Position numbers and translations under genes: made by a program. This document shows positions 21,050 through 29,060 of a stretch of DNA of 64,000 nucleotides, in pieces; positions within the stretch are counted from its first letter, which is position 1, and each line of letters opens with the position of its first letter. This DNA is from a virus. The stretch covers positions 32,001-96,000 of IMG/VR virus record IMGVR_UViG_3300037313_001714; one strand, written 5' to 3'. The notes below the pieces were generated by a model. The model did not search any database, was not told the DNA's origin, and saw nothing but the letters and a program-made list of their open reading frames with translations.

Positions 21050-22063
21050 TTACGAGCCCAACAAAGCTGTCAGTTTAGGCATAAGAGAGTCGGCCCTAAT
21101 CAGCTCGGCGAAGGCCTTTTTGCTCAACTGTTTGCCGTCCCACTTAACGAAGCCTTTGGTCGGCACTTCGATCTTGCCGGCCTCCATCAAGGATTCAACC
21201 ATCGAATATTCACGGTCGAAATAAGCAGTGCCGTTTTCATCAAAGGACATCCGCATGGCGGTCTCCTTGAACGGCTTAGTGAACTTGGTTTTCACCACCT
21301 GGATGCCGATCTTCTGTGCAACAAATTCCTTGCTGCCATTGACCTGCTGCATGACCTTTTCGCGACCGAGCGCCAGGCGGGCCGACGCATAGAACTCCAT
21401 CGCCTTGCCGCCGGGCGTGGTGCGCGGGTCGCCGTAGACGACACCCGGCTTCAGACGCATCTGGTTGAGGTAGATGAACATGGCGTTGTAACGCTCGGCG
21501 TACATCGCCATCGCTTTGAGCGTCGTGGAGGTGACACGGGCCAGCGCCGTCGTGTCATTCATGTTGTAGTCGGCGAACGGTTTGGTGCCGATGCTGTCGG
21601 GAATGGCTGAGGCGATCGAATCGAAGCCGACCACGATCGGCGCCTCGGGCGCAATCACCTTCTTCTCGCGCAGCCAGTGGCAATACAGCGCAGCGCGGGT
21701 GTTGCCCTGCTCCCACGAATTGTTGGGCGGCCGGTGGTAGTACCAGTAGGGCCGCTCGTCCGACATCTTGTAGCCGTCCTTGGCCAGATCGATGTTGAAG
21801 GTGCGCTCCCAGTCGATGAAGGCGGCCGCGCCACCCATGCGCTGGGCCTGCGCCATCACGTCGGTGAGGATCGCGGTCTTGCCGGTGCCGCTCTCGCCGA
21901 AGATTTCATACATGCGGCCGAACACCCAGCCGCCGTCGTATTTCCCGGTCATCGCCTCGTTGAGCGGCGGGAAGCCGGTGTCCAGATAGACGAGGTTCAA
22001 CCCGTCGTCCTCTTCGGGAAAGGCCTTGTCGAAGTCGGCAATCAATGCTGCGCTGGCACTCAT
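21050..22063 (-). CDS. recA: RecA/UvsX-like recombinase
   Basis: DTGFPPLN, EIFGESGTGKT, FIDWE, FDSIA, LNQMR, TTPGGKAMEFYAS motifs. Confidence 0.93.
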   Translation of the reverse strand: MSASAALIADFDKAFPEEDDGLNLVYLDTGFPPLNEAMTGKYDGGWVFGRMYEIFGESGTGKTAILTDVMAQAQRMGGAAAFIDWERTFNIDLAKDGYKMSDERPYWYYHRPPNNSWEQGNTRAALYCHWLREKKVIAPEAPIVVGFDSIASAIPDSIGTKPFADYNMNDTTALARVTSTTLKAMAMYAERYNAMFIYLNQMRLKPGVVYGDPRTTPGGKAMEFYASARLALGREKVMQQVNGSKEFVAQKIGIQVVKTKFTKPFKETAMRMSFDENGTAYFDREYSMVESLMEAGKIEVPTKGFVKWDGKQLSKKAFAELIRADSLMPKLTALLGS

Positions 22064-23082
22064 GTGGAAAGTTCCTTTGGTTTGAAATGGTCGAGGTAGG
22101 CGTCGAGCTGCTTGAGGATCGAGGCGAAGGCCAGCTCCTCGCAGATCGCGGCGAAGGCCTCGGGATCGAAGCAGCCCTTGTCGACATGGATGTCGGCGGG
22201 GTTGGGTGGCGTGACCTTCAGCAGCTGCATGAGCTGGAAGTTGCGCCGGAAGATGGCGCGACCCTGGCCGGGCCAGGCGTCCTGGTGTTTCTTGAGCGCC
22301 TTCGCGTCGGTCGGGTCGCCCGCATACAGCGCGGCCCAGGCCTCCTTGTCGTGCTCGCACTCGCCCCGCCACAAGCTCTTTTCGGCCTTGCTCTTGGGCT
22401 TGTACGCGCCGCTGTCGCACTGACGCCAGAACTCGCGCACGCTGCCGAAGGTGGCGATCAGCTCGATCGCGCCCTTCTCGCCGATGCCGCCCACGCCGCT
22501 GATGACGTCCGAGCTGTCGCCCATGAGACATTTGCGCTCGAGGAACTGCAGCGGCGTGCGGCAGCCCGTCCATTCGTAGAAGTTGCGGGCCGTGACCAGG
22601 CGCGAGCCGTCGCGCATGTCGCGCCAGAAGACGTTGCGCCGCACGAACTGCAGCCAGTCACCGTCGCCGGTGATGCAGCCGATGCGGTGACGCGGATCGA
22701 CGCTGAGCTTGCGCACGAAGTGGCCGGCCAGGTCGTCGGCCTCGTGAGTGAACGCCGTGATCTGGCGGATGCCCAGGTGCCGCAGCAGACCCTGGATGTA
22801 GGGCTTCTGGCTGGCGTAGGCCTCCTTCATGGCCACCCGCTCGGGCGTCGAGCGCCGGTTGCTCTTGTAGTCCGGGTGCAGCGCGAAGCGCCACTCGGCG
22901 CGGCCGTCCCACAGCACCAGCGGCGTCGCGCCGGGATAGTCCTGGCGCAGCGTGCGCATGTCGATCAGCATCCCGTAGGCGGCCTGCGTGGGCTGGCTGC
23001 CCGAGGTCAGCTTGGTGGCTTGCTGCCAGGCGTAGCCCAGCGCATTGCCGTCCACCAGCAACGTGAACTTGTCGTAGTTCAT
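22060..23082 (-). CDS. 5'-3' exonuclease / flap endonuclease (T4 RNase H-like)
   Basis: VDGN, EADD, TGDGD, MGDSSD.I.GVGGIGEKGA (H3TH). Confidence 0.9.
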   Translation of the reverse strand: MNYDKFTLLVDGNALGYAWQQATKLTSGSQPTQAAYGMLIDMRTLRQDYPGATPLVLWDGRAEWRFALHPDYKSNRRSTPERVAMKEAYASQKPYIQGLLRHLGIRQITAFTHEADDLAGHFVRKLSVDPRHRIGCITGDGDWLQFVRRNVFWRDMRDGSRLVTARNFYEWTGCRTPLQFLERKCLMGDSSDVISGVGGIGEKGAIELIATFGSVREFWRQCDSGAYKPKSKAEKSLWRGECEHDKEAWAALYAGDPTDAKALKKHQDAWPGQGRAIFRRNFQLMQLLKVTPPNPADIHVDKGCFDPEAFAAICEELAFASILKQLDAYLDHFKPKELST

Positions 23083-23088
23083 GAACAA

Positions 23089-23170
23089 GGAGGTCGCGTG
23101 TGGGACTCGAACCCACCTGGCGGAGCGAAGCGGGAAGCTCCGCGGGCCTCACCCGAAGCCGAACGCGACC
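23089..23170 (-). ncRNA. tRNA-like RNA with tRNA-Sec-type 8/5 fold, 6-bp D stem, possible UCC (Gly) anticodon, U discriminator
   Basis: GGTCGCGT/ACGCGACC 8-bp acceptor; GTGGG-TTCGAGT-CCCAC T arm; GGCTTC-GGGT-GAGGCC D arm; GCGGAG-CTTCCCG-CTTCGC anticodon arm; ends ...ACC-T-CC(T); fills the SSB-exonuclease intergenic gap. Confidence 0.7.
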
Positions 23171-23179
23171 GTGTCCGCT

Positions 23180-24022
23180 TTACGCGGTCGTGTCGATGTC
23201 GCCCAGCAGGTCGTCCAGCTCGGCGTCGAGGGCGACACCGGCGTCCGGTGCAGTGCGGGCGGCGCCCGCGGCGCCGTTGCCGTTCACGCGCGCGCCGATC
23301 GGGGCGGCCGCCGGACGCGGCAGGGCCGTGGTCGGGGTCGCGGGCGCTGCGCCCGGTGCCGGCAGCAGGCCAGCGACCGTGTTCAGGGCCGCCAGGGCGC
23401 GCTGCTCGCCCTCGGTGCTGTCCTGCTTCACGTAGTCATCCAGGTCCGTCACCTTGTCCTGCACAGCCTTCGGGATCGGCGTGCCAGGCTTCATGCTCAT
23501 GGTGGTGGTGTAGCGCGTGTTCAGACCCGTGCCTTCGCGGTTCACGACGATTTCGTGCCCCTTCTCGGGGTCCAACACGGCTTCCGCGCCGTTCTCGATG
23601 ATCATTTCGAAGATTTGCGTCAGCACCTGCTGCGCCACTTTCGTCACCTTCGGCGTGTTGGGCTCGGACGAGTCCAGGTGCAGCGCGTTGACGAGGTGTT
23701 CCTTGCTGGACTTGGACTTCGCGAGGACTTCGGTTGTGGTGTCGTCCGGGGCGCTGGCGATCAGCGCGCGCAGCGCGTTGCAGGTGTTGCACGGCTTGCC
23801 GTCGGTGGCAGCGGCGCAGACATAGACGGCCTGGAGTTCATCGGCCGCGTTCTTGATGAAGTGCTGGCCGAAGTCGCGCCAGAACTGCTCGGGGTTCTTC
23901 GGGTTCCAGCCGGCGAACAGCCGGATGCGGTTCTTGCCTTGGTTGAAGCCGGCGGCGCGCTCGATGCGCTTCATGGCTTGTTTCTTGGAGGCGATCAGGG
24001 CAGCGATTTTTGCGGCGTCCAT
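23180..24022 (-). CDS. T4 gp32-like single-stranded DNA-binding protein
   Basis: RIRLF..W, QHF, C..CNTC Zn site, REGTGLNTRY, acidic tail DAELDDLLGDID; sits in recA/exonuclease module. Confidence 0.7.
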   Translation of the reverse strand: MDAAKIAALIASKKQAMKRIERAAGFNQGKNRIRLFAGWNPKNPEQFWRDFGQHFIKNAADELQAVYVCAAATDGKPCNTCNALRALIASAPDDTTTEVLAKSKSSKEHLVNALHLDSSEPNTPKVTKVAQQVLTQIFEMIIENGAEAVLDPEKGHEIVVNREGTGLNTRYTTTMSMKPGTPIPKAVQDKVTDLDDYVKQDSTEGEQRALAALNTVAGLLPAPGAAPATPTTALPRPAAAPIGARVNGNGAAGAARTAPDAGVALDAELDDLLGDIDTTA

Positions 24023-24157
24023 GTGGTGTGTGACAGCAGTAAAGAGGTTGAAGAGATGGCAGGTTTGCAGGTGCTTCTCGACGCGGTCGCCCGCGTCAAT
24101 CGCACCCGACATTATACCTCACCGGTGACTTACTGACGAGCCCGAGTCCGCGGGCCT

Positions 24158-25288
24158 TCAGGAGCCCGCGCGGGCTGCGTGCAAGGCCTGCACCACGCGC
24201 ACCGGCCCCTTGCTTTCCTCGCGCCGGTCGGCGCCGATCTGGATCAGCATGTCGCGCCGGTCGTTGAGCGACGCCACCAGGCTCTTGTTGATGCTGGCGA
24301 TGGTCTCGGCCTCCACCACCCGGTTCTTGATCGCGAGCCACAGCGGGTCTGTCTTGACGGCGCTCTCCACCGCCTTCTCGGTGACCTTCTCGCCGCCCGC
24401 GGCAGCCTTCGCGGCCAGGATCTTGCGGTGCTTCTCGTACAGCTGCGCCTCCTTCACTTCGGCCTGCAGCTTCACGCGGTCGGCCTGGGCCTCCGCGTTG
24501 GCCGCGAACTGCCCGTAGGTGGCGCGCAGGCTGTTCTGCTGCATCATGGCGTCGCTCAGGTTGGTGTCGCTGATCGCCGTCTCGCGCTTGAACTCGTCCA
24601 CGTCGATGGAAAAACGCAGGCCCGGGGCGACGCGCGGGTTGTGCGTGTCGGGTTCGGCGGGCGGCTTGCTGGCTTCGCTCGCCAGGCCGGTGCCCTCGTC
24701 CTTCTCGATCTCCGCGATGGCAGCGGCCGCTTCGGCCGCCTCGTTCGCTGCGGCCACCGGGGTAGCCGGGGCGGCGGGCGTTGCTGCAGCCGCCTTGCGC
24801 GTGCGCACGATGGTCTGCACCGCGACGAACGCCGACTGGTACTCGCTGCTCGCCTGGCCGTAGATGCCGGCGATGTCCTTGAGCTTGGCCTTCATCTGCT
24901 CGCCGGTCATCGGCGACCAGTCGGGCATCGTGAAAGCCGGCAGGCCCAGCGCTTCGCCGGTGCTCGGATCGTCCTCCCACGGCAGCGGGTCGGCGATGGG
25001 TGTGACCTTCTCGGGCACGACGAAGTTGGAGGGCTCGGGCGCGGCATGGGCGGCGTCGGCGATGATCGCGTCCACCTTCTGCGCGGCCGTCACGCGCTGC
25101 GACTTCAGCGCCTCGGGCGGCAGCTCGGGCTGCTCGCGCTTGGCCGGCGCGGCGACGGCAGCGGCCGCCTCCTCGACGACCACCGCGGCCGGTGCCGCGG
25201 GCGCATCGACCGCGCCGGCAGTCTCGAGTTCCAGCTCCGCCATGATGGCGTCCAGCTCCGGGTCGTTCATTTCGATTTCGCGTGCCAT
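24158..25288 (-). CDS. UvsY-like recombination mediator with long low-complexity N-terminus
   Basis: Helical C-terminal domain (TEKAVESAVKTDP...R.DML.Q.G...R.E) upstream of SSB and RecA. Confidence 0.5.
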   Translation of the reverse strand: MAREIEMNDPELDAIMAELELETAGAVDAPAAPAAVVVEEAAAAVAAPAKREQPELPPEALKSQRVTAAQKVDAIIADAAHAAPEPSNFVVPEKVTPIADPLPWEDDPSTGEALGLPAFTMPDWSPMTGEQMKAKLKDIAGIYGQASSEYQSAFVAVQTIVRTRKAAAATPAAPATPVAAANEAAEAAAAIAEIEKDEGTGLASEASKPPAEPDTHNPRVAPGLRFSIDVDEFKRETAISDTNLSDAMMQQNSLRATYGQFAANAEAQADRVKLQAEVKEAQLYEKHRKILAAKAAAGGEKVTEKAVESAVKTDPLWLAIKNRVVEAETIASINKSLVASLNDRRDMLIQIGADRREESKGPVRVVQALHAARAGS

Positions 25289-25392
25289 GTTGCGTGTGCT
25301 CCGTGTTGCGTGTGCAGGTTGCAGGTTTGAGGGTCTGACTGTAGCCCGAATGGGCAGGAAAAGATGCGTCACGGGTGACTGAGTGAAACTGC

Positions 25393-28300
25393 CTAAGAAA
25401 CGATCTCGTGAACGGTCTTGAACACCTCCTTCAAGGCGTCGTACTTGCTCGGGTCGAAGTTGATCTGTTGCGGGTTCAGGCCGCACACGATGGTGGCGGC
25501 CAGCGCCGCGTCGTAGATGGTCTTGCCCACCATCTCCGCGCCCTTGGCGCCCGGGATGAAGCGGCGGATCGCTGCTGAGCCCAGCGCCACGATCACCGGC
25601 GGCTTGATGACTTCCAGCTCGCGGGTGAGGAACTGGCTGCAGCCGTTGATCTGGTCGTTGGAGAGGAACTTGTCGTTCTTCTTGGCCTTCACGAGCGTGG
25701 TGTAGTAGCCGTCACCGGGCTGCAGGCCGGCATCGCGGATGGCTTCCTTCACCCAGCCGGCGGCCTCGCCCTCCAGCAGCTTGTCGGCCTTTTCCTCTTC
25801 CCAGCTCGGGCAGTCGGCCACCACCATGAACTTCACGTTGGACTTCATGCGCGCCTGCGGATGCGGCCGGCCGGCCAGGTCGCAGTCGCCGCACTTGCGG
25901 TACTCCTGCACGATGTGGATCACCTTCGCGCGCACGAACTTGTCGGTGACGTCCGTGGTGCGGTCGGCCTTGACGTTGTCGATGATCAGGCCTGGCATCA
26001 GCTCGGTCTGGTCGCGCCGGCGGTCCGGGTGGCGCGCCGGCTTCTCGGTCGGGTCGATGCTGGCCAGTGCGCCGACGAGTTTGAGGCGCTCGCGGTGCGT
26101 GATCGTGATCTTGCTGCCCTTGACGCTGGTCACTGCCTCGAAGTGCGCGGCGCTGGTGAAGCGGCCGCCGGCGGCGGCGCGGTGGGCCATGAGCTTGTGC
26201 GCCGTGTTGTCGCTCAGGCCCTTGACGGCGCTGAACGGTGCCAGGATGTGCGTGTCGTCGGGAATGGTGAAGCGCTCGGTGGACAGGTTGATGTCCGGCG
26301 GCAGGATCTCGATGCCCGCCTCGCGCGCGTCCTTGACCAGGCCCGCGAGCTTGTCCTCCTTGACGATCGACAGGCAGGCAGCGAAGTATTCGGCCGGGTA
26401 GCGCACGCGCAGCCACATGGTCCAGTAGCTGATGATGGAATACTCGACCGCGTGCGAGCGGTTGAAGCCGTAGCCGGCGAACGCCTCGATCTTGTCGAAC
26501 AGCGCGCCCGCGATCGCGGCATCCATGCCCGAGTGCTTCTCGCAGCCCTCCACCCAGGCCTTGCGCTGCTCGGCCATCTTGACCTTGTCCTTCTTGCCCA
26601 TCGCCTTGCGCAGGTGGTCGGCGCCGGCGCGGGAAAAGCCGGCCAGGTCGATCGCCAGCTGCATCACCTGCTCCTGGTAGACGATGACCGAGTAGGTGGA
26701 CTCGAGCGCCGCCTCCATGTTCGGGTGCTCGTAGCTGGGCGTGAGCATGCCCTGTTTGATCGCCACGAAGTCGTCCATCAGGCCCGAGTCCATCGGGCCG
26801 GGCCGGTACAGGGCGGTGGCCGCGGTGATGTCCTCGAAGGTGAGCGGTCCACCCTTGCGCAGCTCGCGCAGCAGCTTGCGCATGCCAGGCGACTCGAACT
26901 GGAAGACGCCCGTGGTGTCGCCGCGCCCGAAGGCGTCCATCACGTCCGGGTCCTCGAGCGGCAGATCGGTGTAGGTGACGTCGACGCCGTGCCGGCCCTT
27001 GATGTACTGCCGTGCGATCTCCAGCACGTCGAGCGTGGACAGGCCCAGCACGTCCATCTTGACCAGGCCCCAGTCCTCCACCGTGCGCTTGTCCCAGGAC
27101 ACCACCGGCAGGCCTTCATCCGTCTCGCTGCGCGTCTCCACGACCGCGCGCTCGTGCAGCGGCACGCCGCCGATCACCACGCCCCCGGCGTGCTGGCCGA
27201 ACGAGCGCATCACGCCTTCGAGCTTCAGCGCGTGGCCCCAGATGTGCGGATGGTTCAGGCGGAACTTGTCGATCTCGGGGATCGCTTTGGCGGCTTCCTC
27301 GAGGGTGGCCGACACGCCCTGCTCCTTTGGCACCAGCTTGGTCGGACTCAGCTCCAGGTTGGACAGCTCGTGCACCCGGCCCGCGTCCCTCAGCGCCGAT
27401 GCGGAGGCGAGCGTCGAAAAGTTGCTGACACCGGCCACCCGGTCGGCACCGTGGCGGCCGACCAGGTACTGGAAGACCTCGTGCCGCCGGCTCGTCTGGA
27501 AGTCCAGGTCCGCGTCCGGGAGGTCGAGGCGTTCAGGGTTAATGAACCGCTCGAACAGCAGGTTGAAACGGATAGGGTCCACCTCGGTGATCCCAAGGAG
27601 GTAGGCAACGAGACTGCCACCAACCGATCCCCGACCGGGACCAACAATGATGCCATTGGCTTTGCTCCAGTTCACGAGGTCCGCGACCAGCAGGAAGTAG
27701 CCGGCGAAGCCCATCTTTTTCAGGACCGCCAGCTCGTAGTTCAAGCGCTCGCGGTACTTGGGCAGGTCGGCGATCGACGGCTGGTGGCCCATGACGCGGC
27801 GGCCGAAGCGCCTACCCCAGCCCGCGATGCACAGCCTGCCCAGCTCCATGAACTCGTTGGTCGCCATGGTGGGCAGCGACACCGGCAGCTTCGCGAACTC
27901 CCACCTGCAGGCGTCGGCCAGGTGCTGGGTGTTGACCAACCCCCTGGCGAACAGGGTGGCGATCTCATGCTTGCTCAGACCCGTGTTTCCCCACTTCTCC
28001 GCACGGTCCACCGCGCCGCTCAGACGTAGTCGCAGCGTCGCAGCCGGCTTGAAGCCGAAGTCGCGCACGAACTGGCGCGGGCGGTGCCGCGTGTCCATCT
28101 TGTACTGCCCCGACGAGCAGATCGTCTGCAAGACCTCCAGCGTGGGTGCGTCTGCGTCGTCGCGGTACAGAAACGGATAGGTGACAAGGGTGCGCGCAGC
28201 GTGCGTGTGCGCTGCCTTCAGCGCGCGCGCGTTGAGCGTGTCGAACAGCGGCGTGTCGATCGGCGCCAGTTCGACATAGACGCGCTCGCGGCTGAACTTC

Positions 28301-28788
28301 GCGATCAGCCGCTGCAGGATCGCGTCGGCCTCCTGGTGGTGCCACAGGCTGTTGAAGTCGCCGGTGGACACAAGCACGTCCTCGAGCGCGAACACCTGCT
28401 CCCAGCCGGTGCGCGCGTGGTAGTAGAACTGCTCGCGCGAGTTGGCCGCCGACAGCAGCTTCATCAGGCTCGTGATGCCGCGCTCGCCCGCCACGTAGAC
28501 CTTGATGCACACGTGCGGGTTCGGCTTGTCCTCGATGCCGCTGTTCTTGGCCGGCTTCTTCCACAGCGGGTCGTCGTAGACGCGCAGGCGGCAGCCGACG
28601 ATCGGCTTGATGCCGGCTTTCTTGCACTTCGTGGTGAAGTCCACCAGCGAGTGGATCGACATCGTGTCCACCAGCGCGACCGACTCGTAGCCGTGCCGCT
28701 GGGCCTCCTCGATGATGTGGTCCGTCTGCAGCAGCGACTCGCCGATGCTGAAGTCGCTGCGCACGGACAGCGCGTGGTTGATGCTCAT
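25393..28788 (-). CDS. dnaE: DNA polymerase III alpha subunit (C family) with C-terminal family-4 UDG-like domain
   Basis: PHP domain; GPGRGS, FERFINPER.DLPDADLDF, HAGGVV, KMDVLGL, GVFQFES, ALYRPGP, GYGFNRSH; C-term CGDCDL...VVADCPS...VKAK...C...E...IKP.VIVALG. Confidence 0.95.
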   Translation of the reverse strand: MSINHALSVRSDFSIGESLLQTDHIIEEAQRHGYESVALVDTMSIHSLVDFTTKCKKAGIKPIVGCRLRVYDDPLWKKPAKNSGIEDKPNPHVCIKVYVAGERGITSLMKLLSAANSREQFYYHARTGWEQVFALEDVLVSTGDFNSLWHHQEADAILQRLIAKFSRERVYVELAPIDTPLFDTLNARALKAAHTHAARTLVTYPFLYRDDADAPTLEVLQTICSSGQYKMDTRHRPRQFVRDFGFKPAATLRLRLSGAVDRAEKWGNTGLSKHEIATLFARGLVNTQHLADACRWEFAKLPVSLPTMATNEFMELGRLCIAGWGRRFGRRVMGHQPSIADLPKYRERLNYELAVLKKMGFAGYFLLVADLVNWSKANGIIVGPGRGSVGGSLVAYLLGITEVDPIRFNLLFERFINPERLDLPDADLDFQTSRRHEVFQYLVGRHGADRVAGVSNFSTLASASALRDAGRVHELSNLELSPTKLVPKEQGVSATLEEAAKAIPEIDKFRLNHPHIWGHALKLEGVMRSFGQHAGGVVIGGVPLHERAVVETRSETDEGLPVVSWDKRTVEDWGLVKMDVLGLSTLDVLEIARQYIKGRHGVDVTYTDLPLEDPDVMDAFGRGDTTGVFQFESPGMRKLLRELRKGGPLTFEDITAATALYRPGPMDSGLMDDFVAIKQGMLTPSYEHPNMEAALESTYSVIVYQEQVMQLAIDLAGFSRAGADHLRKAMGKKDKVKMAEQRKAWVEGCEKHSGMDAAIAGALFDKIEAFAGYGFNRSHAVEYSIISYWTMWLRVRYPAEYFAACLSIVKEDKLAGLVKDAREAGIEILPPDINLSTERFTIPDDTHILAPFSAVKGLSDNTAHKLMAHRAAAGGRFTSAAHFEAVTSVKGSKITITHRERLKLVGALASIDPTEKPARHPDRRRDQTELMPGLIIDNVKADRTTDVTDKFVRAKVIHIVQEYRKCGDCDLAGRPHPQARMKSNVKFMVVADCPSWEEEKADKLLEGEAAGWVKEAIRDAGLQPGDGYYTTLVKAKKNDKFLSNDQINGCSQFLTRELEVIKPPVIVALGSAAIRRFIPGAKGAEMVGKTIYDAALAATIVCGLNPQQINFDPSKYDALKEVFKTVHEIVS

Positions 28789-29060
28789 ACTGGGATGTAG
28801 TCCTGGTCCACCCGTTCGGGAATGGTTCGCTCCCACAAGATGACGAGGTTATGCATGCGCGTGCGGCTGATGGTTCTGGATGGTGAAGTTGCCGTGCACC
28901 CCGGCGACGGCGACACGAACGAGCTGCCCGGATCGAACTCGCTCTCGTTGTGCTCCTGCAGGTAGCTCGCGCGCACCCGCCAGCCCGACTCCGTTGTGGG
29001 CGGCAGCAGCGTGCCGGAGAACGGCAGCGTCACTGTGTGGACGTGATATTCGAACCTCAT
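28785..29060 (-). CDS. Hypothetical protein
   Basis: MRFEYHVHTV...; coupled to dnaE start. Confidence 0.55.
   Translation of the reverse strand: MRFEYHVHTVTLPFSGTLLPPTTESGWRVRASYLQEHNESEFDPGSSFVSPSPGCTATSPSRTISRTRMHNLVILWERTIPERVDQDYIPV

Follow-up and report, generated by a model that had tools for sequence, protein, structure and literature searches.

Transfer RNAs with an acceptor branch of 13 base pairs (8/5 or 9/4) are known only for selenocysteine according to PMC5389517 and PMC7609411, and in these two sources the 8/5 arrangement is described exclusively for selenocysteine tRNAs, where it always occurs together with a long variable arm. Phages use tRNA-Ser and tRNA-His of the 8/4 type (PMC5389517, PMC7609411), and the allo-tRNAs, which are grouped with (8/4) tRNA-Ser, are described as having a long variable arm (PMC7590224). 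An acceptor stem of 8 bp lowers the binding of EF-Tu about 100-fold (PMC7609411). The tRNA-shaped element discussed here, which is located in the replication operon of a phage, has an 8/5 branch and a short variable region.

The long variable arm of tRNA-Sec is needed for SerRS, and the anticodon loops of the allo-tRNAs and of the (8/4) phage tRNAs are standard. In the stable RNAs species 1 and 2 of phage T4, the acceptor, T and D frame is kept, with variation in the anticodon region. The MALAT1/mascRNA system and mitochondrial tRNA punctuation are examples of non-decoding tRNA-shaped modules whose cleavage by RNase P and a 3' endonuclease sets the ends of the flanking RNAs.

Structure and setting of the element

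The virus record (IMG/VR IMGVR_UViG_3300037313_001714) is complete, with 118,453 bp, direct terminal repeats and 66.7% G+C. All coordinates refer to the window, which is the whole stretch of 64,000 nt that was analysed. The genes around the element, as annotated with Pfam, form a replication module that lies entirely on the minus strand (Table 1). Between the SSB stop codon (23182-23180) and the ATG of the exonuclease gene (23082-23080) there is a gap of 97 nt, which is filled exactly, as had been proposed: the element starts 9 nt past the stop codon, is 80 nt long, and has its discriminator 8 nt before the ATG.

Table 1 Features of the element and of the surrounding replication module (window coordinates)
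Feature	Position	Strand	Basis or remark
tRNA-shaped element, acceptor 5' end to U73, 80 nt	23091-23170	-	ARAGORN; RF01852; strict layout scan
Acceptor stem, 5' strand GGUCGCGU	23163-23170	-	paired with 23092-23099, 8 Watson-Crick pairs
Acceptor stem, 3' strand ACGCGACC	23092-23099	-	
D arm, 6-bp stem (one G-U), 4-nt loop GGGU	23145-23160	-	
Anticodon arm, fold A: 6-bp stem, 7-nt loop CUUCCCG (UCC 34-36, C37, C32/G38)	23125-23143	-	whole RNA -37.8 kcal/mol
Anticodon arm, fold B (MFE): 7-bp all-Watson-Crick stem, 10-nt loop UUCCCGCUUC	23120-23143	-	-43.6 kcal/mol
T arm, 5-bp stem, loop UUCGAGU	23100-23116	-	
Spacer, SSB stop codon to element, 9 nt	23171-23179	-	
3' trailer CCUUGUUC, element to exonuclease ATG	23083-23090	-	contains neither SD nor CCA
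DnaE-type polymerase with UDG domain	25393-28836	-	Pfam
Gene between DnaE-type polymerase and SSB		-	no Pfam match
gp32-like single-strand DNA-binding protein (SSB) gene, upstream neighbour	23180-24112	-	PF08804, E 1e-18
Flap-type 5'-3' exonuclease gene, downstream neighbour, no Shine-Dalgarno	22060-23082	-	PF02739 + PF01367; N-terminus agrees with relatives
RecA-like ORF	21050-22573	-	Pfam RecA

The acceptor stem and the D arm are connected by a 2-nt linker (UC), and a single C separates the D arm, which can also be drawn with a 4-bp stem and an 8-nt loop, from the anticodon stem. The segment table and the layout scan described below bear out the 8-bp acceptor stem, the 5-bp T stem, the 6-bp D stem with its 4-nt loop and the TTCGA loop of the original prediction. 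The same holds for the U discriminator and the missing CCA, since U73 is followed by CC-U and CCA is thus not encoded. The stretch of 28 nt that separates the D arm from the T arm can fold in two ways. Fold A has U33 in its loop and a V region of 8 nt, whereas fold B, already suggested as an alternative stem of 7 bp with a 10-nt loop, leaves a V region of 3 nt and is in fact the MFE structure, being 5.8 kcal/mol more stable (pair probability ~0.93 versus ~0.07 for fold A). When the anticodon arm of fold A is folded in isolation, C32-G38 closes and a loop of 5 nt is left. Extending the RNA on each side by 30-150 nt of flanking transcript leaves the cloverleaf as the MFE structure. A tRNA-His-like reading (G-1:C73 in a 7/5 frame) was rejected, because C73 is followed by UCC instead of CCA and there is no GUG anticodon.

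ARAGORN, one of the programs by which the prediction was to be checked, called a tRNA-Gly(tcc) at 23089-23170 on the minus strand (82 nt, anticodon at position 36), which is its sole tRNA call in the 118,453-bp genome. In 60 dinucleotide-shuffled genomes it made nine false calls, or about 0.15 per genome of the same size and composition, so a lone call in a high-GC phage needs independent support. The strict layout 8/2/6/4/6/1/6/7/6/V/5/7/5/8, with V from 3 to 12 nt and 25/25 pairs, had a single match in the real genome and 0 matches in the 60 shuffled genomes; when relaxed, it gave one match in the shuffled genomes at no more than one mismatch and eight at no more than two. This count leaves out the canonical T loop, the GG of the D loop, the coding-strand orientation and the exact fit to the intergenic gap.

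Some further properties of the locus deserve mention. The DnaE-type polymerase III alpha carries a C-terminal domain of the uracil-DNA-glycosylase superfamily (PF03167, residues 1000-1137), which is an unusual fusion. The RecA-like ORF, as listed, overlaps the exonuclease gene by about 500 nt and contains two Pfam RecA stretches, of which residues 314-446 give the best match; probably the true start is much further downstream, or there is an insertion in the gene. The start of the exonuclease gene sits within the palindrome GTTCATGAAC (23076-23100, both strands). On the plus strand, the GTG of a 111-aa ORF (23100-23435) comes 3 nt after AAGGAGGT; this ORF is antisense to the element and the 3' end of the SSB gene and is probably a spurious product of GC-rich DNA. 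Together with the preceding ACCU, the trailer reads ACCUCCUU, which we take to resemble the 3' end of 16S rRNA.

Comparison with selenocysteine and glycine tRNAs

The best Rfam match of the element is the tRNA-Sec model RF01852, with 39.1 bits and an E value of 5.9e-6, which is below the gathering cut-off of 47 bits. With the same model, the true selC of a Paraburkholderia genome scores 74.9 bits and its ordinary tRNAs cross-match at 30-46 bits, so that the score alone means little. As a reference for structural comparison, 16 genuine Burkholderiales selC genes were used (67-87 bits; the selC of genome G028 was left out). In every segment but one the layout is the same, with an 8/5 branch of 13 bp, a linker of 2 nt and a D stem of 6 bp that closes a 4-nt loop. 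The exception is the variable arm, which is about 20 nt in selC, whereas the element has 8 nt in fold A and 3 nt in fold B. The idea of a Sec-type scaffold without its long variable arm thus stands. The proposed likeness of the D arm to that of selC holds as well, since the layout is the same and the GGU of the D loop is common to the 16 genes. Further common features are the option of a 6-bp anticodon stem and the CUUC with which the anticodon loop starts, and the T arm is one loop base apart from that of Burkholderiales selC. On the other hand, the anticodon loop is of the CUUCAAA type with UCA in selC and CUUCCCG in the element, and the G73 and encoded CCA of Burkholderiales selC are replaced by U73 and CC-U. 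The acceptor stem is unrelated in sequence, with differences at 6 of 8 positions, yet its pairing is perfect.

In global alignments selC is nearest to the element, with 59/80 identical positions. Since unrelated tRNAs reach 53/80, no donor can be named. A blastn search with the element against 301 Burkholderiales genomes, including three unpublished ones (G028, G207 and G296), gave no homolog, the best match being 39 bits. Pattern searches were equally unproductive: the T arm plus acceptor stem gave 0 matches in IMG/VR, the D arm plus anticodon stem gave 18 matches that were all due to chance and located in coding sequence, and the pattern from D loop to T loop retrieved ordinary 7/5 tRNAs only. 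Against GenBank phages, blastn found only 20-nt matches to the T arm. In 2.2 Mb of fetched loci, a scan for the tRNA top half detected selC and the element, and no analog. An ARAGORN search found no tmRNA, and at E values up to 10 there was no Rfam match to tmRNA or YrlA in the region 22500-23800. A possible tRNA-like frame was noticed on a 318-kb viral contig (L283, around 4478, minus strand), in which 85 nt separate a weak D arm from a GTGGG/TTCGAAT/CCTAC T arm; it may be due to chance or may represent a tRNA-shaped RNA with an insert. A role as antisense regulator was considered and rejected, as there is no excess of sites complementary to the loop, and the complement of the tail is enriched only as the SD consensus.

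The element shares with elongator tRNA-Gly(UCC) the UCC triplet, U73, G1-C72 and a T loop of the GGUUCGAGUCC type, and its GGUGAG D-loop junction also occurs in some phage tRNA-Gly(UCC) genes. It differs from these tRNAs by the 13-bp branch, C37, the C32-G38 pair and the lack of a match to RF00005, the general tRNA model (cut-off 29 bits), with which the element was not reported in its own genome at E values up to 10. In a set of 530 distinct tRNAs taken from the fetched loci, C37 occurs in one (0.2%) and C32/G38 in three (0.6%). The codon that would be read, GGA, is the rarest glycine codon of the phage (2.5% of Gly codons; 2 per 1000 codons), and GGG accounts for 9.4% of the Gly codons; supplementation of codon supply was considered and rejected, both codons being rare. 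In view of the preference for fold B, the rarity of C37 and C32-G38, the silence of RF00005 and the scarcity of GGA, decoding is unlikely, and so is the possible Gly(UCC) anticodon of the original prediction; the element is probably not a glycine tRNA.

In E. coli, the glycine identity elements U73, C35 and C36 are part of a set that further includes G1-C72, C2-G71 and G3-C70. Of this set, the element has U73, C35, C36 and G1-C72, but it differs by having G2-C71 and U3-A70, although the rules of the host GlyRS may not be those of E. coli. No phage genes were found for a CCA-adding enzyme (PolyA_pol), an EF-Tu/SelB-type GTPase (GTP_EFTU) or a class II synthetase core (tRNA-synt_2b). A FemAB-type transferase gene is absent as well, which leaves the suggestion of a non-ribosomal glycine donor without a partner.

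The gap in related phages and a possible processing signal

Homologs of the exonuclease are numerous (704 at an E value of 1e-20 or better), and many of them come from contigs of roughly 105-118 kb or from prophages labelled Undibacterium, Duganella, Polaromonas, Herbaspirillum and Ralstonia. Approximately 165 loci were fetched, and in about 150 of these the SSB gene is directly upstream of the exonuclease gene. The closest exonucleases (P0002-P0010, mostly from Logan assemblies) are 64-73% identical; the comparison of gaps covers relatives of which the exonuclease is at most 62% identical. In these ~150 relatives the gap is 43-81 nt and contains one GC-rich hairpin, usually together with a T run and with a GGAG ahead of the start codon. 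The closest relative compared (L106, with a 62% identical exonuclease) has exactly this cassette of hairpin, T run and GGAG, and the element is absent from the SSB-exonuclease gap of all ~150 (exonuclease at most 62% identical). The cassette, which is of the terminator type, and the element are at the same position and on the same strand, but a single GC hairpin with T run and GGAG contrasts with a four-arm cloverleaf that has neither T run nor SD. As judged from these sequences, the element is a lineage-specific replacement of hairpin, T run and SD. The original prediction was to be refuted by a lack of compensatory conservation in homologous phages together with a lack of processed RNA, and the first half of this applies: 0 of the relatives compared carry the element, and there is nothing in which compensatory changes could be counted.

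In this phage family, the gap between the SSB and exonuclease genes is a hot spot for insertions. In L183, a very distant relative with an exonuclease that is 33% identical, it contains an ordinary tRNA-Ile(GAU), preceded by two hairpins. With this exception, ARAGORN detected no tRNA near the exonuclease gene in any of the fetched loci. Among 16 near-complete related records, 13 have no tRNA-like match, two have ordinary tRNA clusters elsewhere and one has a single marginal match. Extra ORFs are present in the gap of L031, L065, L071, L081, L135 and L142 (at about 1900-2500 in each locus), those of L031 and L065 having beginnings like HNH/NUMOD-type homing endonucleases. A distant branch of the same family with an exonuclease that is about 39% identical (L133, L141, L144-L176 and L185) consists of metagenome contigs of ~105-112 kb that are abundant, with some labelled human gut, and in this branch the gap, with its hairpin between the SSB and exonuclease genes, shows almost no variation among dozens of samples.

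In the region 22000-25600, the minus strand has no terminator-like site (a GC-rich hairpin with a T run). The one sigma-70-like site in the region (TCGTCA, 17 nt, TATAAT; 24111-24139, minus strand) lies over the listed SSB start codon at 24112, which has a GAGG 5 nt upstream; either the SSB message is leaderless and translated from a later start, or the match is coincidental. Since there is no minus-strand terminator and the sole sigma-70-like site is at the SSB start, the element, for which no promoter or terminator of its own was found, looks embedded in the SSB-exonuclease transcript. By a crude count, about 57% of the phage genes have a strong SD and about 43% do not, so the SD-less start of the exonuclease gene is not special.

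Our tentative preference, at somewhat less than an even chance, goes to a tRNA mimic without a decoding function that is excised from the SSB-exonuclease transcript. The element would be transcribed within this message, after which host RNase P could cut at its 5' end. Following U73, RNase Z, or RNase E together with exonucleases, may then generate the 3' end, to which the CCA-adding enzyme could add its triplet. Such cleavage would split the replication-gene transcript at the position where relatives have the terminator-type hairpin, releasing an RNA of about 80 nt and leaving the exonuclease message with a very short SD-less leader, and the ratio of SSB to exonuclease expression might be affected.

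That a tRNA mimic is more likely than a decoder, as had been suggested, is indicated by the atypical anticodon loop and the dominance of fold B. The processing reading is favoured because the parts that are read by RNase P, the 3' enzymes and the CCA-adding enzyme are intact while the decoding part is not: the 8/5 coaxial helix of 13 bp, the D arm, and D and T loops that can form the elbow are present. It is also favoured by the position of the element, which coincides with that of an RNA 3'-end or attenuation signal in relatives, and it is supported by the loss of the hairpin, the T run and the GGAG that are found in the ~150 relatives. The tRNA-Ile in the gap of L183 can be counted in its favour as an independent case. 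Of the three functions offered in the original prediction (a decoy for anticodon nucleases, a non-ribosomal Gly donor or an RNase P/Z processing signal), the last thus gives the best contextual fit, with a replaced cassette and neither promoter nor terminator of its own. What counts against a processing mimic is that the element is a singleton among the relatives compared, so that no covariation supports selection. Furthermore, RNase P cleavage would strip the SSB message of a protective 3' hairpin, so that the benefit of such processing is not obvious, and a recently acquired tRNA-like gene that is intact but useless would look the same.

Alternative explanations and described counterparts

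Such a useless gene is the alternative that survives best, although we consider it unlikely. A Sec-type or other tRNA-like gene would have been captured at the insertion-prone gap and have become a neutral relic, with loss of variable arm, anticodon and CCA, its stems being intact only through recency. The absence of the element from all relatives compared, the lack of partner genes and the hot-spot character of the gap, with its ORFs in six loci and the tRNA-Ile of L183, agree with this; more speculatively, a 9-nt deletion between CAG repeats of a selC-like variable arm would yield the present V region. However, a donor is missing, with the best selC at 59/80 hardly separated from unrelated tRNAs at 53/80 and 0 of the 301 Burkholderiales genomes having a homolog. 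Moreover, an acceptor stem that differs from selC at 6 of 8 positions and still pairs, together with identity features that have all changed while 25/25 pairs are kept, is not a pattern of neutral decay. The insertion would also have displaced the terminator and SD of an essential-looking operon without visible damage.

Less probable still is a charged or protein-binding decoy. In that case a host enzyme or defence protein would read the acceptor/T half or the Gly-type end and be titrated, or host tRNA would be protected, and the 8-bp acceptor stem would keep the RNA out of translation. The presence of U73, C35 and C36 in fold A fits this possibility, as does the occurrence of a single tRNA-like gene in the genome. 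It also agrees with an 8/5 shape that disfavours EF-Tu (PMC7609411) and with the proposal that phage tRNAs serve to counter host tRNA nucleases (PMC10264068). On the other side, fold A, at a pair probability of ~0.07, is a minor conformer, G2-C71 and U3-A70 do not match the E. coli Gly set, no candidate target or partner is known to us, and conservation is lacking in relatives whose hosts are presumably similar.

A working elongator tRNA-Gly(UCC), of which the odd anticodon loop and shape provide resistance to host anticodon nucleases, must be regarded as rather improbable. The Gly(tcc) call of ARAGORN and the U73 and CC after the acceptor stem are in line with it, and mutations in the anticodon loop have indeed been proposed as a means of nuclease evasion by phage tRNAs (PMC10264068). 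It is disfavoured by the absence of an RF00005 match at E values up to 10, by the 13-bp branch, with EF-Tu binding ~100-fold more weakly to an 8-bp acceptor stem (PMC7609411), by C37 and a Watson-Crick C32-G38 pair that in the isolated arm closes the loop to 5 nt, by the low demand for GGA (2 per 1000 codons), and by the dominance of fold B.

In a combined scheme, a minimal Sec-scaffold mimic would be excised, provided with CCA and charged, probably with glycine by virtue of U73 and C35-C36. Kept off EF-Tu by its 8-bp acceptor stem, it would act as a sink or a decoy that diverts a host factor directed against charged tRNAs or the ends of tRNAs. This scheme is very unlikely to be correct; if true, it would represent a novel class of counter-defence RNA in phages. 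A cloverleaf that arose by chance in GC-rich intergenic DNA, for which one could invoke the 0.15 false ARAGORN calls per shuffled genome of this composition, can practically be dismissed in view of the one real match to the strict layout versus 0/60 shuffles, the canonical T loop, the D-loop GG, the coding strand, the exact gap filling and the Infernal E value of 5.9e-6.

When the element, read as a processing mimic, is placed next to described RNAs, it falls outside every described family, because it lacks at least one defining feature of each of tRNA-Sec, elongator tRNA and allo-tRNA. With the allo-tRNAs and the (8/4) phage tRNA-Ser and tRNA-His it has the 8-bp acceptor stem and a Sec-like D arm in common (Mukai et al., PMC5389517), and U73 is also found in some (8/4) tRNA-His (PMC5389517). 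However, the branch of that group is 12 bp (8/4 or 9/3) and that of the element 13 bp (8/5), and the short V region and aberrant anticodon region further distinguish the element from allo-tRNA. Unlike the T4 stable RNAs, which have large inserts and are located close to tRNA clusters, the element is minimal, with 28 nt between D and T arms, and lies by itself within a replication operon. The occurrence there of an 8/5 RNA whose V region is short indicates that the scaffold is reusable outside selenocysteine decoding, and we take the label "tRNA-Gly" that a tRNA finder (ARAGORN) gave here as a mislabel of a mimic.

We know of no bacterial or phage case of a processing signal with a Sec-type scaffold. 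The mascRNA and mitochondrial punctuation systems are eukaryotic or organellar whereas the element is from a phage, and the likeness concerns the proposed mechanism only. Should the proposed processing take place, the element would represent a natural exchange of a terminator for a tRNA-shaped processing site, and a counterpart in a bacterial virus of tRNA punctuation or of mascRNA-type 3'-end formation.
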